Positions 4,713 to 24,543 of a stretch of DNA of 24,543 nt are shown here, in pieces. The translations under genes and the position numbers were made by a program. Origin of the DNA: a virus (Duplodnaviria; Caudoviricetes); IMG/VR virus record IMGVR_UViG_3300005662_000230, positions 1-24,543 of that record. One strand, 5' to 3'. Position 1 is the stretch's first letter. Each line of letters begins with the position of its first letter. The notes beneath the pieces are model-generated. The model did no database searches, was not told where the DNA came from, and was given only the letters and a program-made list of their open reading frames with translations.

Positions 4713-5761
4713 AAGTCGCCATCTACGCCCTCGCCCGCAATGAAGCCGCAAACGTCGAGCGGTGGGAGTCGTCGTGCCGGGAGGCCGACGTTCGGGTGGT
4801 CACCGACACCGGCTCCACCGACAACACGGTGGAGCTGCTCGAGGCCGCGGGCGTGACGGTGGCCCGCGGGGCTCCGATCCCGTGGCGGTGGGACGACGGC
4901 CACAACCTATCGCTGATGCACGCCCCGGCCGACGCCGACGTGGTGATCCGTCTGGATCTCGACGAAGCCCTCGACCCCGGCTGGCGGGAAGCCCTAGAGC
5001 GTGATTGGAAGCCGGAGACCACCAAGCTCCGCTACTGGTACTGGTGGTCAGACGTGGTCCGGTTCCGCTGCGACCGCATTCACACCCGCACTGGCTACCG
5101 GTGGACCGGGGCGACGCACGAGGGGCTCGTGAGGTGGGACGGCGATGAAGTGCAGACGCAATCGGACGGCGTCGTGATCCGCCACCACCGGCAACCAGGA
5201 AAGACCCACAAAACCGACCTCACGCTTCTCCGGCAAGCCGTCCGCGAGAATCCGGCCGACGCCAGGATGCAGTGGTATTTCGCTCGCGAGCTGGACTACG
5301 CCGACGATGCGGCGTGCGTCGAGGAGTTTCAGAAATACCTTGCCATGCCGGGCGGGGCCGCGAATGAGCGGGCGTATGCCCGCCGGGTGCTTGCCAGGCG
5401 TGACGAGCGTGGACGTGCCCGCCACATGCTCGGGTCCATGCTGGAGAGCCCGCTGGAGCCAGAGGCATACGCCCACGTCGCTGAGCTGGCCTGGTCGAAA
5501 GGTGACGCGGTGGGGGCACTCTACTGGGCACGGCAAGCATTGAACTGCTCCGACGAAAACCGGTCGCACGCGAGCGATCCGGCTGCCTACGGAGAGTTTC
5601 CAGCCGACGTGGCGTATTCAGCCGCCTACAAGCTGGGGCTCATGGGTGAGGCTATTAGCCATGCCAAGGAAGCCGCACGACGGAATCCTGGCAATCAGCG
5701 GCACGCGGACAACGTGCTGGCGATTGGGAGAATGGAAGTAGAGGAAGGCCCGAAACCATGA
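4709..5761 (+). CDS. GT2-family glycosyltransferase with C-terminal TPR region
   Basis: 'ARNEAANV', 'DTGSTDNT', DxD motif 'LDLDE', 'W.G..HE', then helical repeats ('RMQWYFARE', 'EAYAHVAELAW'). Confidence 0.85.
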   Translation: MKVAIYALARNEAANVERWESSCREADVRVVTDTGSTDNTVELLEAAGVTVARGAPIPWRWDDGHNLSLMHAPADADVVIRLDLDEALDPGWREALERDWKPETTKLRYWYWWSDVVRFRCDRIHTRTGYRWTGATHEGLVRWDGDEVQTQSDGVVIRHHRQPGKTHKTDLTLLRQAVRENPADARMQWYFARELDYADDAACVEEFQKYLAMPGGAANERAYARRVLARRDERGRARHMLGSMLESPLEPEAYAHVAELAWSKGDAVGALYWARQALNCSDENRSHASDPAAYGEFPADVAYSAAYKLGLMGEAISHAKEAARRNPGNQRHADNVLAIGRMEVEEGPKP

Positions 5762-18986: not shown

Positions 18987-19192
18987 GCATCCTCTGGCGG
19001 TGGGTTATTTCGATACTCGTTTGGCTATCGGCCGATCACCAGCGGATCGCGACCGAGCCCGCGAGGGCTGCGGCTGCGGTGTCGGCCGCCAGGGCGTCGA
19101 TCCTCGAGGAGCTGGCGGCGAAGCCGCCGGCCCCGGTGCCGGTGAAGTCGGGCACGACGTGCGTCTCCGGAACGTGCCCACCCCGGCGGTGA
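18983..19192 (+). CDS. Small membrane-anchored protein with C-terminal CxxGxCP
   Basis: GAGG RBS; ATGA coupling. Confidence 0.55.
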   Translation: MSILWRWVISILVWLSADHQRIATEPARAAAAVSAARASILEELAAKPPAPVPVKSGTTCVSGTCPPRR

Positions 19193-19196
19193 CGAC

Positions 19197-19622
19197 GTGA
19201 ACGAGGCTATCGCCCAACTGCAGGCACACGTTCGCTACCGGTTGGGCAGCCGCGTCACCTACGCCGAAGTCTGGCGGGTGGACCAGCTCACCCGGCTGGC
19301 GATCCGGCATTGGCCGCACAATCACCTGGAGGACGCGGAAGCCGGTGGCGGGCGGCATCATGCCGCGGTGTGCCATGCGTTGACGCTGATGCGGAGCCAG
19401 GTTCGCGAACAGTGGGAAGCCCGGCATGGGGCCGGGCCGCTATGGGACGTGGTGCTTGGCGGCACGACCTCGGCTATCGGGGTGGTGCTGCTCGATCTCT
19501 GGTGGCCGTCGAGGCCGTGGCGGTCGATCCTACGGGCGATGGGGCGGTCACTGGCCGACGATCGCCAGGACGGCGTCGATCGCGTCGTGGACCGCACGGG
19601 CGAGCCGCGAGTCGGTCCCTAG
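19197..19622 (+). CDS. Hypothetical protein (last + strand gene)
   Basis: 141 aa; its 3' end overlaps the convergent - strand ORF. Confidence 0.55.
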   Translation: MNEAIAQLQAHVRYRLGSRVTYAEVWRVDQLTRLAIRHWPHNHLEDAEAGGGRHHAAVCHALTLMRSQVREQWEARHGAGPLWDVVLGGTTSAIGVVLLDLWWPSRPWRSILRAMGRSLADDRQDGVDRVVDRTGEPRVGP

Positions 19623-19685
19623 TTCCTGCCCGATGCGGATCAGAAGCAGGCCGCGGATGGCGTCGGTCCAGGTGGGGCGGGTCAT
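19548..19685 (-). CDS. Small hypothetical protein (45 aa)
   Basis: ATGA coupling to the Prim-Pol stop; MTRPTWTDAIRGLLL... Confidence 0.45.
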   Translation of the reverse strand: MTRPTWTDAIRGLLLIRIGQELGTDSRLARAVHDAIDAVLAIVGQ

Positions 19686-20176
19686 GGAAGCACCTGTGCC
19701 GCAAGCAACTGGGCCGGGAACGGAGCAATCGGAACCTCTGCCGGGCTGGTTGTCCATTCGTATTTCGATCCGGACGGGTGGACGGACGGCGGGAGCACCG
19801 ATTGGGCGGCCCGACCGCCGATGCGGATCTCCAGGTCGTCGGCCTTGATGACGGCGGTCTCCGGCATCCAGGGTTCCCAGTGGTATAGCCGGTGCTCTCC
19901 TCGAGCCGATCGCCAGGTCGGGGTGGGAATGTCGAGCAACCCGAATGCGGCGAGCTGCTCGCGTCCCTCGCGCGTGTCGTATTCAACGTCGACGACGCCG
20001 GACATTGGGCCGAGCAGGATGCCGACGTTCGACCCGGCGGCGAGCCACCGGGCCACGTCGTCGTGGTTGTCCGTGGCTTTGGTTTGCCAAGCGGTGCCGA
20101 GCGGTCGTTTCTCACGGCGGGCGACCCGGATGATCAGGCAGCCGGAGTCGATGAGGGCGATGAGTTCGCGGGTCAT
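19682..20176 (-). CDS. Bifunctional DNA primase/polymerase (Prim-Pol) domain protein, stand-alone
   Basis: 'K.P....WQ..AT', 'NVGILLG..SGVVDVEYD', 'S.RGEH.LY' and 'VLPPSVHPSG..YEW'. Confidence 0.85.
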   Translation of the reverse strand: MTRELIALIDSGCLIIRVARREKRPLGTAWQTKATDNHDDVARWLAAGSNVGILLGPMSGVVDVEYDTREGREQLAAFGLLDIPTPTWRSARGEHRLYHWEPWMPETAVIKADDLEIRIGGRAAQSVLPPSVHPSGSKYEWTTSPAEVPIAPFPAQLLAAQVLP

Positions 20177-20367
20177 TCCTGGTCCCTCCCGCCGTTGATG
20201 TTCCGGCCCGTGTCGTCGAGGACATACCACTCATCGCCGGTGTAGTGCGTCTCGGCGTATTGGTTGGCAGCGGTGTCGTCTGCCGCCCGGAACGTGTCCA
20301 CCACGTCCCAGTCGCCATCGGTTAGGGGATAGGCGATTCGGTATTCGCGATCTTCTGTCGTGGTCAT
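20173..20367 (-). CDS. Small acidic protein (64 aa)
   Basis: CACAACC-AGGAG-ACCGAGACC-ATG leader; Asp/Glu-rich. Confidence 0.75.
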   Translation of the reverse strand: MTTTEDREYRIAYPLTDGDWDVVDTFRAADDTAANQYAETHYTGDEWYVLDDTGRNINGGRDQE

Positions 20368-20420
20368 GGTCTCGGTCTCCTGGTTGTGCGGCCTGGGCCG
20401 CGGGTTGTGGCACTGGTCTA

Positions 20421-20449
20421 GATATATTCGGTCGGCAATACGAAGTCAA
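20421..20449 (-). promoter_or_regulatory. Promoter with operator-like palindrome
   Basis: TTGACT-17-TATATC; 18-bp site at 20423-20440; A/T tract upstream. Confidence 0.55.
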
Positions 20450-20479
20450 CTTGGTTAGCAAAAAAACTCACGGGGGCGA

Positions 20480-20743
20480 TCAGTCGGCCGGCTTTTTGCG
20501 GCTACGCTTCCGGGCCAGCTTCTCCCGGCGGGCGATCGTCTCATCGGATTGCGGCCGGCCGGCGTTCGGGTGGCGCTCGAATGCCGCGGCTGCAGCCCGT
20601 AGGACAAACCATTGCCCGTCGATTTCGATGCCGGGCACCTTGCCGGCTTTGACGTGCTGGAGCATCCAGAAGCGTGAGACGTTCGCAAGGTCGGCGGCGG
20701 TGCCGACGCGAACGTAAAGCGAGGGGTCGATTTTTGGTGGCAT
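20480..20743 (-). CDS. HTH_17/excisionase-like DNA-binding protein
   Basis: 'YVRVGTAADLANVSRFWMLQHVKAGKVPGIEIDGQWFV' plus a basic tail. Confidence 0.8.
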   Translation of the reverse strand: MPPKIDPSLYVRVGTAADLANVSRFWMLQHVKAGKVPGIEIDGQWFVLRAAAAAFERHPNAGRPQSDETIARREKLARKRSRKKPAD

Positions 20744-20749
20744 GATGTC

Positions 20750-20777
20750 ATTTTTGCGGCCGGTTGCTGGTTGTCAA
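20750..20777 (-). promoter_or_regulatory. Putative leaderless promoter of the HTH gene
   Basis: TTGACA-16-AAAAAT-6 nt-ATG; no Shine-Dalgarno. Confidence 0.45.
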
Positions 20778-21049
20778 TACTGGGTTCGAGTAGTTGTCCA
20801 GTAGCCGAGAGCCGCGGCCTGGCATTCCGCGAGGCTTCCGTAGGTTCGGCCGTCGGCCGGCGATCGGTTGTCGCCGGTCGTGATGTAGTACGGGTAAAGG
20901 GCGGTGCCGTGGCCGCAGTGGCGGACGATCACCCCAGGTAGGTCGTCGCGGGTCCATGTCAGGTTTCGCCCCCACGGGCCGCGGCGGCCGATCCATTTCG
21001 CGGGCGTGGCCGCGGGCTCGAGGGCAAATAGCTGCAGTTGCGATGTCAT
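20774..21049 (-). CDS. Hypothetical protein (91 aa)
   Basis: Preceded by a CACAACC-rich leader; MTSQLQLFALEP...HCGH.TALYPYY. Confidence 0.7.
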   Translation of the reverse strand: MTSQLQLFALEPAATPAKWIGRRGPWGRNLTWTRDDLPGVIVRHCGHGTALYPYYITTGDNRSPADGRTYGSLAECQAAALGYWTTTRTQY

Positions 21050-21084
21050 TGGTTGTGGGTGTTGGTTTGGGTTGTGGTTGTCGA

Positions 21085-21333
21085 TCAAATCGCGGCACCG
21101 CTGGCGGGCGTGGCGTCCAGCTTGCCGGCCGTGTCCAGCACCCACCAACGGAATCCGGTCTCGGCGTCTAGCCGTCGTCCCTCGCGGATCGCGGCCTGGT
21201 GGGTCTGGTGGTTGAGCTGGCCGCCGGCGTCGATCGCGGCGATGTATGCGGCGAGGGTCCAGCGGTTTCGCTGGTGGTCGTCGGCCGCGAACGTCAAGGA
21301 ATGGGGGGCTAGGTGAAAGCGGTTGGCGGGCAT
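21085..21333 (-). CDS. Hypothetical protein (82 aa)
   Basis: CACAACC x4-AGGAG leader. Confidence 0.75.
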   Translation of the reverse strand: MPANRFHLAPHSLTFAADDHQRNRWTLAAYIAAIDAGGQLNHQTHQAAIREGRRLDAETGFRWWVLDTAGKLDATPASGAAI

Positions 21334-21384
21334 GGTTGTGTGGCTCCTGGTTGTGGGGTTGTGGGTTGTGGTTGTGGTTGTCGA

Positions 21385-21606
21385 TCACCAGCCGTACACG
21401 TCACCGCATGGGTAGACCTCGGCGATCAGCACGCCGTCGAACGCTTCGTATTCGGCGGTGTGCGTGTAGTCGTTGTCGACGACTCGCACGGCACGCGAGT
21501 CGTAGGCGCTGTCCATTTCGATAACGGCCATCGTGCGGCCGGTCTCGCGGGCGATGCGTCGGGCCTTGGCGATTGCTTGGGGGGCGTAGAGCGGGGCGGC
21601 GGGCAT
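21385..21606 (-). CDS. Hypothetical protein (73 aa)
   Basis: CACAACCACAACC-AAGGAG-AACCAGACC-ATG leader; MPAAPLYAPQ... Confidence 0.75.
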   Translation of the reverse strand: MPAAPLYAPQAIAKARRIARETGRTMAVIEMDSAYDSRAVRVVDNDYTHTAEYEAFDGVLIAEVYPCGDVYGW

Positions 21607-21713
21607 GGTCTGGTTCTCCTTGGTTGTGGTTGTGGGTCTCGGTGGCCGGCGATCGCCGGGCCGGCCCGGTTCCCGCCGTCCCCGGTGGGGCGGCGGTGGC
21701 CGGGGCGGCCGGG

Positions 21714-22022
21714 TCAGTCGTCGAGCCCCTCGGCGAGATCCCAAGCGGCCGCGGCTGCAGCGGCGGCTATCTCGTTGGTTGTGGGGCGGCGGCGCTTGCC
21801 GCCGCGGGCCCGGCGGGCCAGCTCGTCGGCACAGTAGTTGATCTCGTCGAGGTAGTAGCCGTAGTTCGGCTGCTCGGGCCATGCGGCGAGGACTGCTTGG
21901 CAATCGGCGATGACGAACAGAAGTTCGGCATCGGATCGCGTGCGGCACAGTTTGGGATAGGCCGCGTGGTCGATCTGCTTGGTGGGGCATCCGTAAACGT
22001 TGTCGGTGGTTGTGGCGTTCAT
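21714..22022 (-). CDS. Hypothetical helical protein (102 aa)
   Basis: Repeat leader with GAGGAG; 'EL.FVIADC...GYYLDEINYC..EL.RR'. Confidence 0.75.
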   Translation of the reverse strand: MNATTTDNVYGCPTKQIDHAAYPKLCRTRSDAELLFVIADCQAVLAAWPEQPNYGYYLDEINYCADELARRARGGKRRRPTTNEIAAAAAAAAWDLAEGLDD

Positions 22023-22125
22023 GGTCTCGGCTCCTCGGGGGTTGTGGTTGTGGGTTGTGGGCAACGTGCCCGGCATCCCCCTGGCCGGCCGCGGCGGATG
22101 CCGGGGCCGGCGTGGGGGCGGCCGG

Positions 22126-22470
22126 TCAGGCCGCGGGGGCGATTACTCGGCGATCGGCTGACACTGCGGCGAGGATGTCGGCGGCCGCCGTGTCGTCTCG
22201 GGCGACCGTCTCGCGAGTCTCGGTTGTGGTGAACACGTCGATGTCGCCAATGGTCCAACGGTCTGCGGCATCGCGGAACACCGTCACGCGGGCAACCCTC
22301 CACGATGGGCCATCGTGGGGAAGGTGGCACCAATACTCGCGGGCATCGTCGGCACGCATCAAGCCGCCCGCGGCCGGTCGGCTCCAGGAATCAAGGGCCG
22401 CGGCACCGTCGCCGATTTGCTGGCAAATCATGTCGCGGTCCGCGGCGGTTAGCTTCTGGTCGATCGTCAT
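22126..22470 (-). CDS. Hypothetical protein (114 aa)
   Basis: Repeat leader with AAGGAG. Confidence 0.75.
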   Translation of the reverse strand: MTIDQKLTAADRDMICQQIGDGAAALDSWSRPAAGGLMRADDAREYWCHLPHDGPSWRVARVTVFRDAADRWTIGDIDVFTTTETRETVARDDTAAADILAAVSADRRVIAPAA

Positions 22471-22580
22471 GGTCTAGGCTCCTTGGTTGTGGTTGTGGTG
22501 GGTTGTGGTCGGGCGTTGTGCCCGGCCGCCCGGTTTCCGGCCGCCGGCGGCGGCGGCCGGTGGCCGGGGGGCCGCGGCGA

Positions 22581-22841
22581 TCAGTTGGGGAAACCCTCTC
22601 GCCAGTAGCACGGGGCCGGCTGGTCGTCGTCGTCCTGGTCGTCGTCACCGGCGACGGCTTCGCCGATGTACTCCTCGACGCCGCTCGCGTCGTCGTCGAG
22701 CCGATAGACGCTGGCGGATTCGCCATCGTCGGCCCCCTCGTCGGCCAGTAGTTCGCGGACGTAGTCGATAGCCGCGGAGTCGGTGACGGCGTCGAATCGT
22801 GTCGACGGGCCCCGGTCGAATCGTGCTAGGTAGTCGGGCAT
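22581..22841 (-). CDS. Very acidic small protein (86 aa)
   Basis: Repeat leader with AGGAG; 'DDDQDDDDQ'. Confidence 0.75.
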   Translation of the reverse strand: MPDYLARFDRGPSTRFDAVTDSAAIDYVRELLADEGADDGESASVYRLDDDASGVEEYIGEAVAGDDDQDDDDQPAPCYWREGFPN

Positions 22842-22936
22842 GGCGTGGGCTCCTGGTTGTGGTTGTGGGTCGGTCGAGAGTCGGCCGCCCGTTTGCCCCC
22901 GCCCGTGGGCGACGGGGGGCGACGGGGGGCCGGCGG

Positions 22937-23488
22937 TCAGTTGTTGGTGAAAACCCAAACACCGCCGGGGCCGCGGATCGTCTCAACGTCGCCGGACAGC
23001 TCCAGGTCTCGGGCCATGCGGTCCCAGTCGACATAGTGGGCGGGGTGCCACCATTGGCCGGCCGCGGCCTTGTCGGCGTCCTGGTTGTGGCCCATGTCGT
23101 CCCATAGGTTTTCAACGTAGTCGGCGAGCGTGTCCCATTCGCCGCGGAACACGTCTGCGAAGTCGTCGGGGTCGCGGCCTGGTTCGTTGCCAAGCCAAGC
23201 CAAGAGCGCCGCGGCATCGTCGCCGGCCGCCGCGACGGCCTGGCCGATCGACGAGACGCGATCGAATGATTCCCATTCGCCGATCGAGCCGAGCCCCTCA
23301 TGGTCATGAATCGCCCATTCTTCGGCACCAGGTTCGGGCGATGCTGCGAGCATCTCCGCGACCTGGTCGCGGATGTCGTCGGCGTCTTGGTTGGCGTCAA
23401 TCCATCGGCCGTGGAGTCGGCCGGAGTTGTAAGCCGCGAGGCACGCGACATACACGCGGGGAGTCGGGTTGTTGGTTGTGGCGTTCAT
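22937..23488 (-). CDS. ardA: Antirestriction protein ArdA
   Basis: 'PRVYVACLAAYNSGRLHGRWIDA', 'EEWAIHDHEG', 'F.GEWD' and 'YVDWDRMARDL..SGD'; acidic. Confidence 0.93.
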   Translation of the reverse strand: MNATTNNPTPRVYVACLAAYNSGRLHGRWIDANQDADDIRDQVAEMLAASPEPGAEEWAIHDHEGLGSIGEWESFDRVSSIGQAVAAAGDDAAALLAWLGNEPGRDPDDFADVFRGEWDTLADYVENLWDDMGHNQDADKAAAGQWWHPAHYVDWDRMARDLELSGDVETIRGPGGVWVFTNN

Positions 23489-23560
23489 CGTCGTTTCTCC
23501 GTTCAAGTGTTCCGGCCGATTGAATCCCGCGGCCGGGTCGGGTTGTGTTGCTGGTTGTGT

Positions 23561-23589
23561 GGTATTGGCGATCGACAATATAGGATCAA
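23561..23589 (-). promoter_or_regulatory. ardA-operon promoter with operator-like palindrome
   Basis: TTGATC-17-AATACC; palindrome TATTGGCGATCGACAATA at 23563-23580. Confidence 0.55.
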
Positions 23590-24170
23590 AACGGGGCGGA
23601 TTCAAGGTGAGCACGAAGCCGGGGACGGCCGGCCGTCGGATGGCGGCTGAAAAACGCAACGTCGACCGCGGCAACCTCCCAGCGACGGCCGACCTTGCGG
23701 CCGCGGACCTTGCCGGCTTTCACCAGTTGTCGCAACCATTGTTCGGTTATGTCGGCCGCGGCCGCGGCGGCTACCAAACCCGTCCACGTCGTTTCCACGT
23801 CGTCGGCGCTGGCTTGGTCGATCATTCGGTCGATCACTTCCGCCATCACGTCGTCGGCCGGCCGCATTCCGGGGGCAGCGGCGGCCAGCTCCTCATACAA
23901 CTCGTCTGCATTCATGCCGCGGCCGGCCGCTGTCACGTCCAGACCGCGAATGTAGGTTGCATCCCCGCCCGTGAATGCTGCCCGGTTCCGCGCCTTCCAG
24001 TGCCCGCCGTGAGTGTCGCCACAAGAAGCCTGGAAAGCCTCACGGCGGAAGGTGCCGATACGCTCGAGCTCAGCGGCTTCAATCGCACGGACCTCACGGT
24101 AGGCGGCAAGTACGGTCGGCCACTCGATGCCCGCGGCCGCCGCTCGTTCTTTGTGTTCGTTCGTGTTCAT
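23586..24170 (-). CDS. Protein with unknown N-domain and C-terminal HTH_17-like domain
   Basis: C-terminal 'AADITEQWLRQLVKAGKVRGRKVGRRWEV......F.RHPTAGRP' is paralogous to 20480-20743. Confidence 0.75.
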   Translation of the reverse strand: MNTNEHKERAAAAGIEWPTVLAAYREVRAIEAAELERIGTFRREAFQASCGDTHGGHWKARNRAAFTGGDATYIRGLDVTAAGRGMNADELYEELAAAAPGMRPADDVMAEVIDRMIDQASADDVETTWTGLVAAAAAADITEQWLRQLVKAGKVRGRKVGRRWEVAAVDVAFFSRHPTAGRPRLRAHLESAPF

Positions 24171-24176
24171 GTCGTT

Positions 24177-24205
24177 AGTATCGTCGATCGTCAATACGGC
24201 GTCCA
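24177..24205 (-). promoter_or_regulatory. Leaderless promoter with operator-like palindrome
   Basis: TGGACG-17-GATACT-6 nt-ATG; site TATCGTCGATCGTCAATA at 24179-24196; A/T tracts at about 24215-24230. Confidence 0.55.
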
Positions 24206-24252
24206 GTGCTCCACCAAAAAAATCTTTTTTGCGGGAAACCCGGGCGGCAGTG

Positions 24253-24270
24253 TATTGGCGATCGCCAATG
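24253..24270. promoter_or_regulatory. Fourth operator-like palindrome
   Basis: TATTGGCGATCGCCAATG, with a perfect 16-bp inner palindrome. Confidence 0.6.
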
Positions 24271-24302
24271 GACACTTGGCAAACGCGAAACCGGACGGTG
24301 CC

Positions 24303-24386
24303 GACCATTGACCATTGACCATCGACCATCGACCATCGACCATCGACCATCGACCATCGACCATCGACCATCGACCATCGACCATC
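24303..24386. repeat. Tandem 7-mer array (GACCATY) x12
   Basis: Two GACCATT followed by ten GACCATC. Confidence 0.97.
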
Positions 24387-24415
24387 GGTCACCAGGTCAC
24401 CAGGTCACCAGGTCA
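24387..24415. repeat. Tandem 8-mer array (GGTCACCA) x3.6
   Basis: Directly abuts the 7-mer array. Confidence 0.95.
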
Positions 24416-24449
24416 ACGACCTTGTGACGGTCGGCCGGTCGTGATGGCC

Positions 24450-24530
24450 GGCCATCGAAATACCATCGCGGCCGCGGCGGTCGGCTATCGAAATACTCGC
24501 GGGCGGGGTTGTGGGGCTATCGAAATACTC
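24450..24530. repeat. Three phased direct repeats GGCYATCGAAATAC(TC)
   Basis: Copies start at 24450, 24483 and 24515 (33 and 32 bp period). Confidence 0.9.
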
Positions 24531-24543
24531 CCCGCGCGTGTAC

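Follow-up and report, generated by a model that had tools for sequence, protein, structure and literature searches.

The 24,543-bp window analysed here, which is the entire record for the genome of an uncultured tailed phage with 64% G+C (IMG/VR record IMGVR_UViG_3300005662_000230), carries an array of small early genes that share a leader made of repeats of the heptamer CACAACC. Its late genes (capsid, decoration protein, head-tail joining protein, tape measure and others) occupy the + strand from position 1 to ~19,600, and its early region runs on the - strand from 24,170 down to 19,682 in the order A-ardA-C-D-E-F-M-G-A2-H, followed by a gene for a prim-pol N-terminal domain protein (hereafter prim-pol). 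On balance we lean towards reading (CACAACC)n as the variable-length core of a standard translation-initiation module with two jobs, one as ribosome standby or enhancer site and the other as homology for cassette shuffling. Single-stranded RNA free of G and T directly 5' of the Shine-Dalgarno sequence (SD) would provide the standby or enhancer site, each promoterless cistron of a hairpin-rich polycistronic early mRNA would thereby be translated on its own, and homologous recombination or slippage at the repeats would allow cassettes to be added, removed and reordered. We infer translation enhancement from positional evidence, predicted accessibility and published CA-rich leaders, and we likewise infer recombination at the repeats. 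Because the same sequence flanks every cassette, the repeat would offer homology for cassette exchange.

CACAACC leaders before the early genes

CACAACC occurs 32 times in the window, whereas 100 dinucleotide shuffles gave a mean of 3.18 and a maximum of 9, with none reaching 32. The - strand from 20382 to 24513 accounts for 27 of them; the remaining five are scattered (+ 4901, + 18120, - 7240, - 7788, - 13032) and none of them precedes a gene start. Among the early-strand copies, 21 fall within 740 nt of spacers (two in A>ardA, two in ardA>C, three in C>D, three in D>E, two in E>F, five in F>M, two in M>G and two in A2>H, each spacer being named after the genes that it separates), five lie within open reading frames (ORFs), two of these in the first codons of ardA and of E (MNATT), and one lies upstream of A. 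A preliminary description of this DNA had proposed a motif array before the small early genes, and on these counts the array is real; the leaders that it quoted at 22841, 22470, 22022, 21606, 21333, 21049 (without an SD) and 20367 are all present at those starts. Its statement that nearly every gene carries such a leader holds for seven of the nine genes between ardA and prim-pol (C, D, E, F, M, G and H, each with CACAACC at most 45 nt from the start) but not for A2 (start 20743), which has only a degenerate CAACCAGCAACC, nor for prim-pol (start 20176), which overlaps the preceding stop (ATGA). At ardA itself, two copies lie 55-70 nt upstream, and a hairpin and an SD in another context come after them. 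The ACC-ATG ending ascribed to the leader is found in five of the seven genes but not in the other two.

The motif was said not to precede late genes, and this agrees with our counts: none of the 22 + strand starts inspected in the window, some of which are uncertain, is preceded by it. In a 42,795-bp relative contig, which holds 28 copies of CACAACC (5.1 in shuffles), 23 of them inside a 5.2-kb array, the CACAAC leader stands before none of the 44 + strand genes. A comparison with host genes had also been proposed, and the doubled motif CACAACCACAACC occurs five times in a 4.3-Mb Pirellulales metagenome-assembled genome (MAG), our only hint to the host, with all five copies on the phage contig and none outside it.

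The same arrangement recurs in relatives. Scanning for the pattern and for prim-pol yielded 117 loci that match prim-pol, and we kept the 73 that are non-identical and extend at least 1.5 kb upstream of it. In 33 of these, copies of CACAACC crowd the region upstream of prim-pol, on the early strand only; in the 5 kb upstream of prim-pol, the copies on the early and the other strand number 27 and 0 in the window, 27 and 0 in L095, and 29 and 0 in L098, and downstream of prim-pol the motif is rare (0-5 copies). Across these 33 loci, CACAAC lies at -50 to -1 of 182 of the 304 automatically called upstream genes, compared with 49 of 807 control windows inside coding sequence (CDS). An A/C-only run of at least 12 nt is present in 139 of 202 unique spacers (25-140 nt), and in 81 of the 139 it ends exactly at the SD core (within 4 nt in 88). 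The leaders are thus what the preliminary description took them to be, standard modules directly before the SD of otherwise unrelated small genes. These genes also share first codons: ATGAACGCCACAACC (MNATT) opens ardA, ardC, E and R (window 23474-23488 and 22008-22022), ATGCCCGCC (MPA) opens F, M and others, and in gene R of L009 the repeat runs on in frame as poly-Thr (MNATTTTTT). Since unrelated cassette genes begin with the same codons, the standard module extends into the coding sequence.

In folding predictions, the mean unpaired probability from -20 to +6 is 0.51-0.79 in the six repeat-led genes, compared with 0.41-0.46 in five other early genes and an average of 0.46 over ten late genes. 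When the repeat zone was swapped for pieces of early CDS, accessibility was lower in at least 90% of 30 trials for five of the six genes. The leader zone (-45 to -14) is 42% C and 23% G overall, and its runs are G-free over 12-35 nt. In the portions of the literature available to us, CA-repeat 5' tails are reported to raise translation with length, (CA)4 < (CA)6 < (CA)8, and to need single-strandedness (PMC5934652), and ACA motifs beside the SD are described as enhancers, with the G/U-rich small RNA (sRNA) GcvB silencing ACA and C/A-rich enhancers (PMC3879156). A 19-mer scan found CA-rich runs abutting the SD of single genes in unrelated viral contigs, three in L006 (a 69-kb contig with 70% G+C, in which a fourth run lies 3 nt before AGGA), one in L003 and one in L008. 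Leaders rich in C and A may be more widespread among phages whose hosts are GC-rich. We also considered whether the leader pairs with 16S rRNA but dropped the idea, as the three repeat types described below would need three different targets.

Cassette turnover, switch points and repeat dialects

From prim-pol onward the relatives are collinear at 77-93% nucleotide identity, but the array is a mosaic, with six gene orders among eight curated loci. L009, for instance, reads A-ardA-D-E-C-R-F-M-..-N and L001 reads J-A-ardC-E-F-L-M-A2-N, and the closest distinct relative, L012, with a backbone ~91% identical, has ardC-E-C where the window has ardA-C-D-E. In L011, which is near-identical to the window (1 mismatch in 11,675), repeat number is unchanged. 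The gene content of relatives therefore varies as the preliminary description had anticipated, by whole-gene gain, loss and reordering, and a fixed gene order was not seen.

The slot after A is an anti-restriction slot and holds ArdA (window 22937-23488), ArdC (PF08401 and PF18818, that is, ArdC-N plus a zincin peptidase; L076:1353-2303) or the 333-aa protein O333 (L061:3949-4947). O333 is found in eight loci at 332-336 aa and has no match in Pfam, PHROGs, NCBIfam or PDB; it is a candidate new anti-restriction protein. An inner slot holds a TGT-like enzyme of the queuine tRNA-ribosyltransferase family in L064 (3033-4175), L017, L065 and L077 (phrog_887, E 2.3e-26), which suggests that 7-deazaguanine-type DNA modification could serve as a further anti-restriction device. 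The proposal of an anti-defence array is borne out by ArdA in the window and by ArdC and the TGT-like enzyme in the slots of relatives, but most cassette genes have no known function.

The joins between cassettes can be read at individual junctions. Behind E, five loci are identical through both hairpins of the spacer up to ...ACCCACAACCAC and then follow the next gene, F, P or C (alignment A4); behind C, the sequence is identical through ...GACCACAACCCAC and then follows D, E or R (alignment A5). In both alignments the hairpin and first repeat unit go with the upstream gene and the last unit or units, the SD and the SD-ATG spacer go with the downstream gene. This downstream part does not change for a given gene; ...CACAACCACAACC-GGAGAACCAGMCC, for instance, stands before F in four contexts. 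An automatic survey covered 210 junctions and 143 distinct events. Similarity shared through a common upstream gene ends at -20 to +5 in 48 of 78 events, and similarity shared through a common downstream gene ends at -40 to -21 in 33 of 65.

Sister lineages carry other repeats in the same place, an aspect that the preliminary description did not foresee. Among the 73 loci, three have (CCGAACC)n and seven have (CCACGCC)n, and a further 30, which we call the 'none' type, lack a repeated leader and differ in the rest of their early region as well. The repeat also occupies the spacer between SD and ATG, as GGAGCCACAACC-ATG, GGAGCCCGAACCC-ATG and GGAGCCCACGCC-ATG. We compared 18 gene families common to different genome types. 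In CACAACC genomes, 87 of 104 family members have CACAAC and none has CGAACC; in CCGAACC genomes, 17 of 22 have CGAACC; and in CCACGCC genomes, 15 of 44 have CACGCC. The leader follows the genome, not the gene. A hybrid leader, cacaaccaccaccAGGAGcccgaaccc, occurs in L051. On a prim-pol tree the types are clustered (11 changes versus 30.5 in shuffles) but not monophyletic, and the CCGAACC clade is sister to a CACAACC clade. These dialects, all three T-free and G-poor, would most simply arise by concerted evolution of a recombining repeat family.

The variable repeat number raises the question of whether the tracts have any role in expression, as they could instead be slippage-prone microsatellites, the scars and substrates of cassette recombination. 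Copy number does differ at orthologous junctions (F>M has five CACAACC copies in the window, four in L009 and two in L004), the repeats enter coding sequence as poly-Thr N-termini such as that of gene R in L009, and Tandem Repeats Finder reports 6-7-nt arrays. We nevertheless consider this explanation distinctly unlikely. In the window, L095 and L098 the repeats lie on one strand only; 81 of 139 spacers have a run that stops precisely at the SD; the dialects are alike in being T-free and G-poor; three loci share the M>G leader that takes the place of the SD; and neutral repeats would not keep position and composition across lineages whose prim-pol proteins are only 67-100% identical.

The dialects could also be read as operators for a trans factor, either an RNA-binding protein or a G/U-rich sRNA, that switches all cassettes together, with one factor per dialect. 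T4 RegA is the model for a phage RNA-binding protein of this kind. What is kept in each genome is the precise heptamer and not mere composition, it differs between lineages before the same families, and the dialects cluster on the prim-pol tree; silencing of ACA and C/A-rich enhancers by GcvB, as described in the available part of its source, offers a precedent (PMC3879156). Gene E would be the place to look for such a protein, as its family (n = 41) is found in 39 array-type loci and in two borderline 'none' loci and has a conserved core, IDHAAYP..CR..SDAEL...DE..YCADEL.RR.RGGKRRRP, with a basic RRxRGGKRRRP patch and mosaic N- and C-termini. Protein E is modelled as four helices (pLDDT 85), yet it has no RNA-binding or other fold match (best Foldseek E 0.41) and no Pfam, PHROG or PDB sequence match, and its Atlas matches are below 0.9 and unnamed; no candidate factor was found. 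On the gene E tree the dialects are partly mixed (at least three forced changes) with weak support at key forks, and we do not build on it. Doubled GGTTGTG was not found outside the array in the complete relative genome, so there is no anti-leader sRNA candidate there. Copy numbers of 1 to 5 and the hybrid leaders fit loose requirements better than a specific operator, unrelated phages have similar CA-rich leaders, and concerted evolution alone can yield dialects. We therefore regard a common trans factor as unlikely. A related and speculative idea, which we hold only tentatively, is that the private heptamer of each lineage is an address label that sets cassette-trading partners by homology, in effect a recombinase-free counterpart of the integron with compatibility groups, and that a lineage-specific factor may also control the whole anti-defence set.

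Several observations weigh against the repeats being both translation leader and recombination homology. The gain in accessibility is modest, ~0.15-0.2, and is a prediction. The 30 'none' loci use ordinary SDs, so the leader is not required by the hosts of this family, if these are alike, and because CCGAACC and CCACGCC contain G and lack ACA, an ACA-specific enhancer is not the whole story. The 24 listed runs that contain the sequence are all freshwater or lake metagenomes, and none is an RNA run. The genes of the 73-locus set were called automatically, with some errors. In the junction survey, whose events are mutually non-independent, 56 of 143 events end in the A/C run when sorted by spacer class, compared with 36% expected from its share of length, and clustering emerges only if the SD and first codons count as part of the module; moreover, a module that is by construction common to all cassettes must bound similarity at its edges, whatever route the cassettes took. 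The preliminary description had predicted breakpoints in the leaders, and the hand-checked switches do fall inside the CACAACC run, but some switch points lie directly after the stop codon, outside the repeats. Hairpin types are exchanged behind ardA, ardC and O333, and two C-terminal variants of gene C share one common downstream hairpin.

Spacer hairpins and known systems

The full unit runs from a stop codon through a covarying GC-rich hairpin and the A/C-only repeats to AGGAG, 8-9 nt and the ATG. The four long spacers (ardA>C, C>D, D>E and E>F, 95-110 nt) begin with a bipartite, GC-rich hairpin (~20 bp, 3x3 internal loops), followed by a small second hairpin, and their 3' part holds two or three A/C-only heptamers, (A)AGGAG, and 8-9 nt often ending in ACC before the ATG. 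The predicted stems have 5+6+3 or 5+5+10 pairs with 3x3 loops; three of the four spacers are more stable than shuffles (z -2.75 to -4.2), and in the minimum-energy fold the repeats and SD are unpaired in all four. We aligned 28 hairpins, namely 27 of the 31 distinct 'GGCCACC'-subtype cores and the E>F spacer of the window; the other 55 of 88 class-I spacers belong to other subtypes, outside this alignment. Compensatory changes are seen in six of the 18 pairs, and the share of paired cells is 98.2%, against 85.1% after shuffling. None of 500 shuffles reaches the covariation score of 0.289 (shuffled value 0.077), and sliding the partners yields no more than 0.055. Selection acts on the structure of this hairpin. 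A covariance model built on it finds four sense-strand copies in the window, two of them outside the training set, and none outside the arrays in 152,900 bases of the window and relatives; in Rfam the only match is a sub-threshold one to P33 (24 bits, gathering score 45). The leader, which had been described as the module, is indeed a standard part, but the true module is larger and includes this 3' hairpin.

By analogy, the hairpins would most simply be 3'-end protectors or T7-like RNase III signals between cistrons. The T7 early precursor is described, in the available portion of the source, as carrying five RNase III signals, whose internal loops give single-strand cuts (PMC3867540). Both systems have a polycistronic early operon headed by an anti-restriction gene and bipartite inter-cistron stems of ~20 bp with internal loops, predicted ones in our case, and such stems could leave a protective 3' hairpin upstream and a free leader downstream; the T7 sites as presented there have neither a repeated leader nor cassette variation (PMC3867540). 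The same likeness enters an alternative in which the tracts act on transcription or RNA decay, as a Rho-loading (rut-like) site for untranslated cassettes or as the landing pad of a processing nuclease. The C-rich, G-poor composition of the leader zone and its G-free runs of 12-35 nt would suit Rho, and each long spacer combines a tract with a conserved bipartite stem. The tract nonetheless touches the SD, and there Rho would face competition from a loading ribosome; the short spacers F>M and M>G have tracts without a hairpin. A processing role for the hairpin is in any case compatible with the translation-leader reading and so is no true rival to it, and we find a primary role in transcription or decay very improbable. 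In T7 the anti-restriction gene in question, 0.3, encodes Ocr.

The layout also recalls integron arrays. Promoterless small ORFs in one orientation lie behind a common promoter-like site (here a consensus match only), an imperfect hairpin follows the 3' end of the ORF in each long spacer, with outer stem and internal loop conserved and the inner stem variable but compensated, and content and order differ between relatives. A true integron-like system, in which attC-like 3' hairpins of single-stranded DNA are used by an upstream tyrosine recombinase that captures and excises cassettes, would moreover find a tyrosine integrase just upstream of A on the same strand in L012, L061, L063, L073, L075 and L079 (phrog_1, E 1.8e-26). 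This integrase has no NCBIfam match (E <=0.01), the integron-integrase model included, its Pfam match is weak (E 3.9e-4), and it is placed as in an ordinary phage integration module; the window itself ends before that position. An attC site at a cassette end has a core of consensus GTTRRRY and its inverse core; GTTRRRY occurs 28 times in the window (30.4 expected), twice in the array region, within ORFs M and D, and never in the spacers. In the cases checked, the sequences switch within the repeats, 25-40 nt beyond the hairpin in the downstream direction, and cassettes with hairpin-less spacers vary too. The G-U pairs (three cells) and C-A mismatches (two cells) of the hairpin alignment do not separate RNA from DNA folding. 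We consider membership in the integrons highly improbable. The earlier phrase 'integron array without an integrase' is apt as an analogy of layout, but an IntI-type integrase and an attC core were not found, so that the likeness does not amount to membership.

Parallels also come from other phages. PeSL cassettes of T4-type phages, as far as the accessible parts of the two reports describe them, are composite motifs that recur between genes, with an SD and start codon at their end; they cluster in variable regions ahead of small genes whose function is unknown, include a GC-rich stem-loop, and bound insertions, deletions and replacements between close relatives (PMC2839356, PMC4122927). All of these features recur here, with stem-loops of -38.6 to -54.2 kcal/mol that are absent from F>M and M>G, and with statistics for bounding that are weaker than the hand-checked cases. 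The A2>H spacer and 42 unique 'class II' spacers of its design in relatives carry the full PeSL plan of A/T stretch, sigma-70-like promoter, stem-loop and SD. The differences from what is reported of PeSL lie in the promoters, as only two promoter-like sites are found in 19000-24543 (23605>23577 and 20777>20750) and none stands before C, D, E, F, M or G; in the shared element, which here is a heptamer-repeat translation leader and not a promoter; and in the hairpin, which lacks a U-run, while the repeat varies between sister lineages. Recombination between PeSL motifs is stated in those parts to give circular DNAs or mini-circles (PMC2839356, PMC4122927).

The start-associated sequences (SAS) and ESAS of cluster K mycobacteriophages, in the part of their description available, are likewise asymmetric repeats in a single orientation before non-structural genes only, lie a few bases from mostly ATG starts, embrace AGGAG, are absent from the host genome and often stand behind an inverted repeat with a subcluster-specific consensus; their function is given as unknown, with a suspected role in translation (PMC3203893). 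SAS are, in contrast, a fixed 13-mer, GGGATAGGAGCCC, 3-7 bp before the start codon, whereas a variable number of G- and T-free heptamers lies upstream of the SD here, and the ESAS inverted repeats come there without RNA-pairing support, whereas the hairpins of the array show compensatory changes (PMC3203893). The SAS consensus GGGATAGGAGCCC does not occur in the array, and a single 1-mismatch match at 4869 of the window (0.55 expected) is at chance level. With C/A-rich enhancers and standby tails, as the available portions of those papers present them, the array shares unstructured CA-rich RNA directly before the SD, predicted to be single-stranded in our case (PMC5934652, PMC3879156). The effective length of 12-16 nt is matched by runs of 14-35 nt, and CA repeats right after the start codon, here the MNATT codons, are also reported there as helpful (PMC5934652). 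The cases published in those portions are single host genes or synthetic tails in enterobacteria, in contrast to a repeated standard part for a whole operon (PMC5934652, PMC3879156). The layout thus combines features of PeSL cassettes, cluster K SAS and C/A-rich enhancers, and what is new in it is a heptamer-repeat leader without a promoter, together with switch points that can be read and dialects that differ by lineage.

Early-region layout and its significance

Gene A (23586..24170, - strand as for all early genes; 194 aa) opens the leftward early region and is found in most related loci. It has an excisionase-like helix-turn-helix (HTH) at its C-terminus, where residues 137-172 match phrog_1840 (E 1.8e-5). 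The A>ardA spacer (23489..23585) holds the promoter-like site 23605>23577, an operator-like palindrome (23564-23579), CACAACC at 23553 and 23541, a small hairpin and an SD, a design kept among relatives as 'class III' spacers. The anti-restriction gene ardA (22937..23488, 183 aa; PF07275 E 1.9e-34; phrog_2059) has the N-terminus MNATT, coded by ATGAACGCCACAACC. In the ardA>C spacer (22842..22936), a GC-rich hairpin is followed by an A/C run (22854-22870), AGGAG, 8 nt and ATG; its fold of -38.6 kcal/mol has a z of -0.56, and the hairpin covariance model matches 22860-22935 (E 0.005).

None of the genes C, D, E, F, M, G and H has a family match in Pfam or PHROG searches. All cassette ORFs show an excess of third-position differences from their orthologues and are therefore real genes. 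Gene C (22581..22841, 86 aa; codon-position differences 10/26/69 versus four orthologues) sits at different array positions in relatives. It is followed by the C>D spacer (22471..22580), with a bipartite hairpin, a small second hairpin, an A/C run (22483-22509), AAGGAG, 8 nt and ATG; the fold is -54.2 kcal/mol (z -4.2), covariation is seen, and the switch point lies within the repeat run. After gene D (22126..22470, 114 aa; 15/17/91) comes the D>E spacer (22023..22125), with a hairpin, an A/C run (22037-22061), GAGGAG, 8 nt and ATG, a fold of -50.9 kcal/mol (z -3.2) and a covariance-model match (E 0.0011) although it lies outside the training set. Gene E (21714..22022, 102 aa) is the most widespread array gene. 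The E>F spacer (21607..21713) has a bipartite hairpin, a small hairpin, an A/C run (21620-21637), AAGGAG, 9 nt and ATG, with a fold of -50.1 kcal/mol (z -2.75) and the switch point of alignment A4 within the repeat.

Gene F (21385..21606, 73 aa; 16/10/68) is separated from gene M (21085..21333, 82 aa; 15/7/31) by the 51-nt F>M spacer (21334..21384), which has no hairpin and consists nearly entirely of A/C repeats, with four CACAACC copies before AGGAG and a fifth between SD and ATG. The M>G spacer (21050..21084, 35 nt) is a 33-nt A/C-only run touching the ATG, and this SD-less leader is also kept in L004 and L005. Translation of gene G (20774..21049, 91 aa; 3/5/23 versus two orthologues), which has no SD, may start from the CA-rich tract alone. 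Gene A2 (20480..20743, 87 aa) encodes a small HTH protein that belongs with the C-terminus of A in one family; it clusters with A, a representative of the family matches phrog_1840 (E 4.6e-5), and the gene is preceded by the promoter-like site 20777>20750, with neither a CACAACC leader nor an SD. The A2>H spacer (20368..20479) is of the promoter type. A T-run and a promoter identified by eye, TTGACT-17-TATATC at 20449>20421, come with a half-palindrome resembling an operator (20424-20439), and the spacer also has a small hairpin, two CACAACC copies (20403 and 20382) and AGGAG. The stop codon of gene H (20173..20367, 64 aa) overlaps the prim-pol start, and most relatives have gene N (88 aa) in place of H with the leader unchanged. 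Prim-pol (19682..20176, 164 aa; PF09250 E 1.9e-23) is the conserved right border of the variable array. It comprises the N-terminal domain only and closes the leftward operon, head-on to the last + strand gene (19197-19622) across a gap of 60 nt; because the two converge, late read-through would be antisense to the early genes.

Four operator-like palindromes, ATTGNCGANCGNMAAT, lie at 24254-24269, 24180-24195, 23564-23579 and 20424-20439 (0.06 expected), two upstream of A, one at the promoter-like site before ardA and one in the by-eye promoter before H, where no site was called by the tool. They are probably sites for the small HTH protein A or A2, and internal promoters of relatives carry TTGCCGATnGG-type versions. 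This resembles the Aca-type HTH autorepressors of acr-aca operons, in that small HTH genes lie inside an anti-restriction operon with operator-like palindromes at or near its promoter-like sites, but A and A2 match no Aca family in Pfam, PHROG or NCBIfam, and the likeness concerns the promoters and not the CACAACC leaders. At the contig end upstream of A there are tandem repeats of CGACCAT (x12.3, 24302-24387), of GGTCACCA (x3.6, 24387-24415) and of a 32-nt unit containing GTATTTCGAT (x2.5, 24449-24528). In relatives the integrase gene adjoins this region, and the repeats could be an origin, arm-type sites or a regulator array.

The early region has no blastn match among 50,697 phage records, and tblastn matches of the capsid are all below 30% identity, with no close cultured phage. 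Contigs from runs X2-X5 are short (depth 2-7) and break near spacers, with no supported joints; one X5 contig that joins 21381 to 22484 with 20 other letters between was taken to be a relative or a repeat artefact. As to the host, two contigs of whole-phage length are binned, L127 (G001 contig C24, 42.8 kb, 82% prim-pol identity) in a Pirellulales MAG and L128 (45 kb, 66% prim-pol identity) in an 'Enterobacterales' MAG, the latter looking like a binning error. Binning is weak evidence, and the Pirellulales MAG gives no more than a hint to the host.

Accessory regions of phages show the fastest turnover of anti-defence genes, and how whole genes are swapped cleanly there is still argued, the competing views being conserved linkers and random breaks followed by selection. 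This phage family is unusually legible in this respect, as a short, countable, strand-specific repeat marks the cassette boundaries, the join between upstream and downstream parts can be read inside it, and in sister lineages the repeat has been replaced wholesale while the genes were kept. If the leaders are standby sites, they would be a natural 'standard ribosome-binding part' for very GC-rich messages, useful in Planctomycetota-like hosts. The arrays also point to ~200 small protein families that lie beside ArdA, ArdC and the TGT-like enzyme and are candidates for new anti-defence functions.

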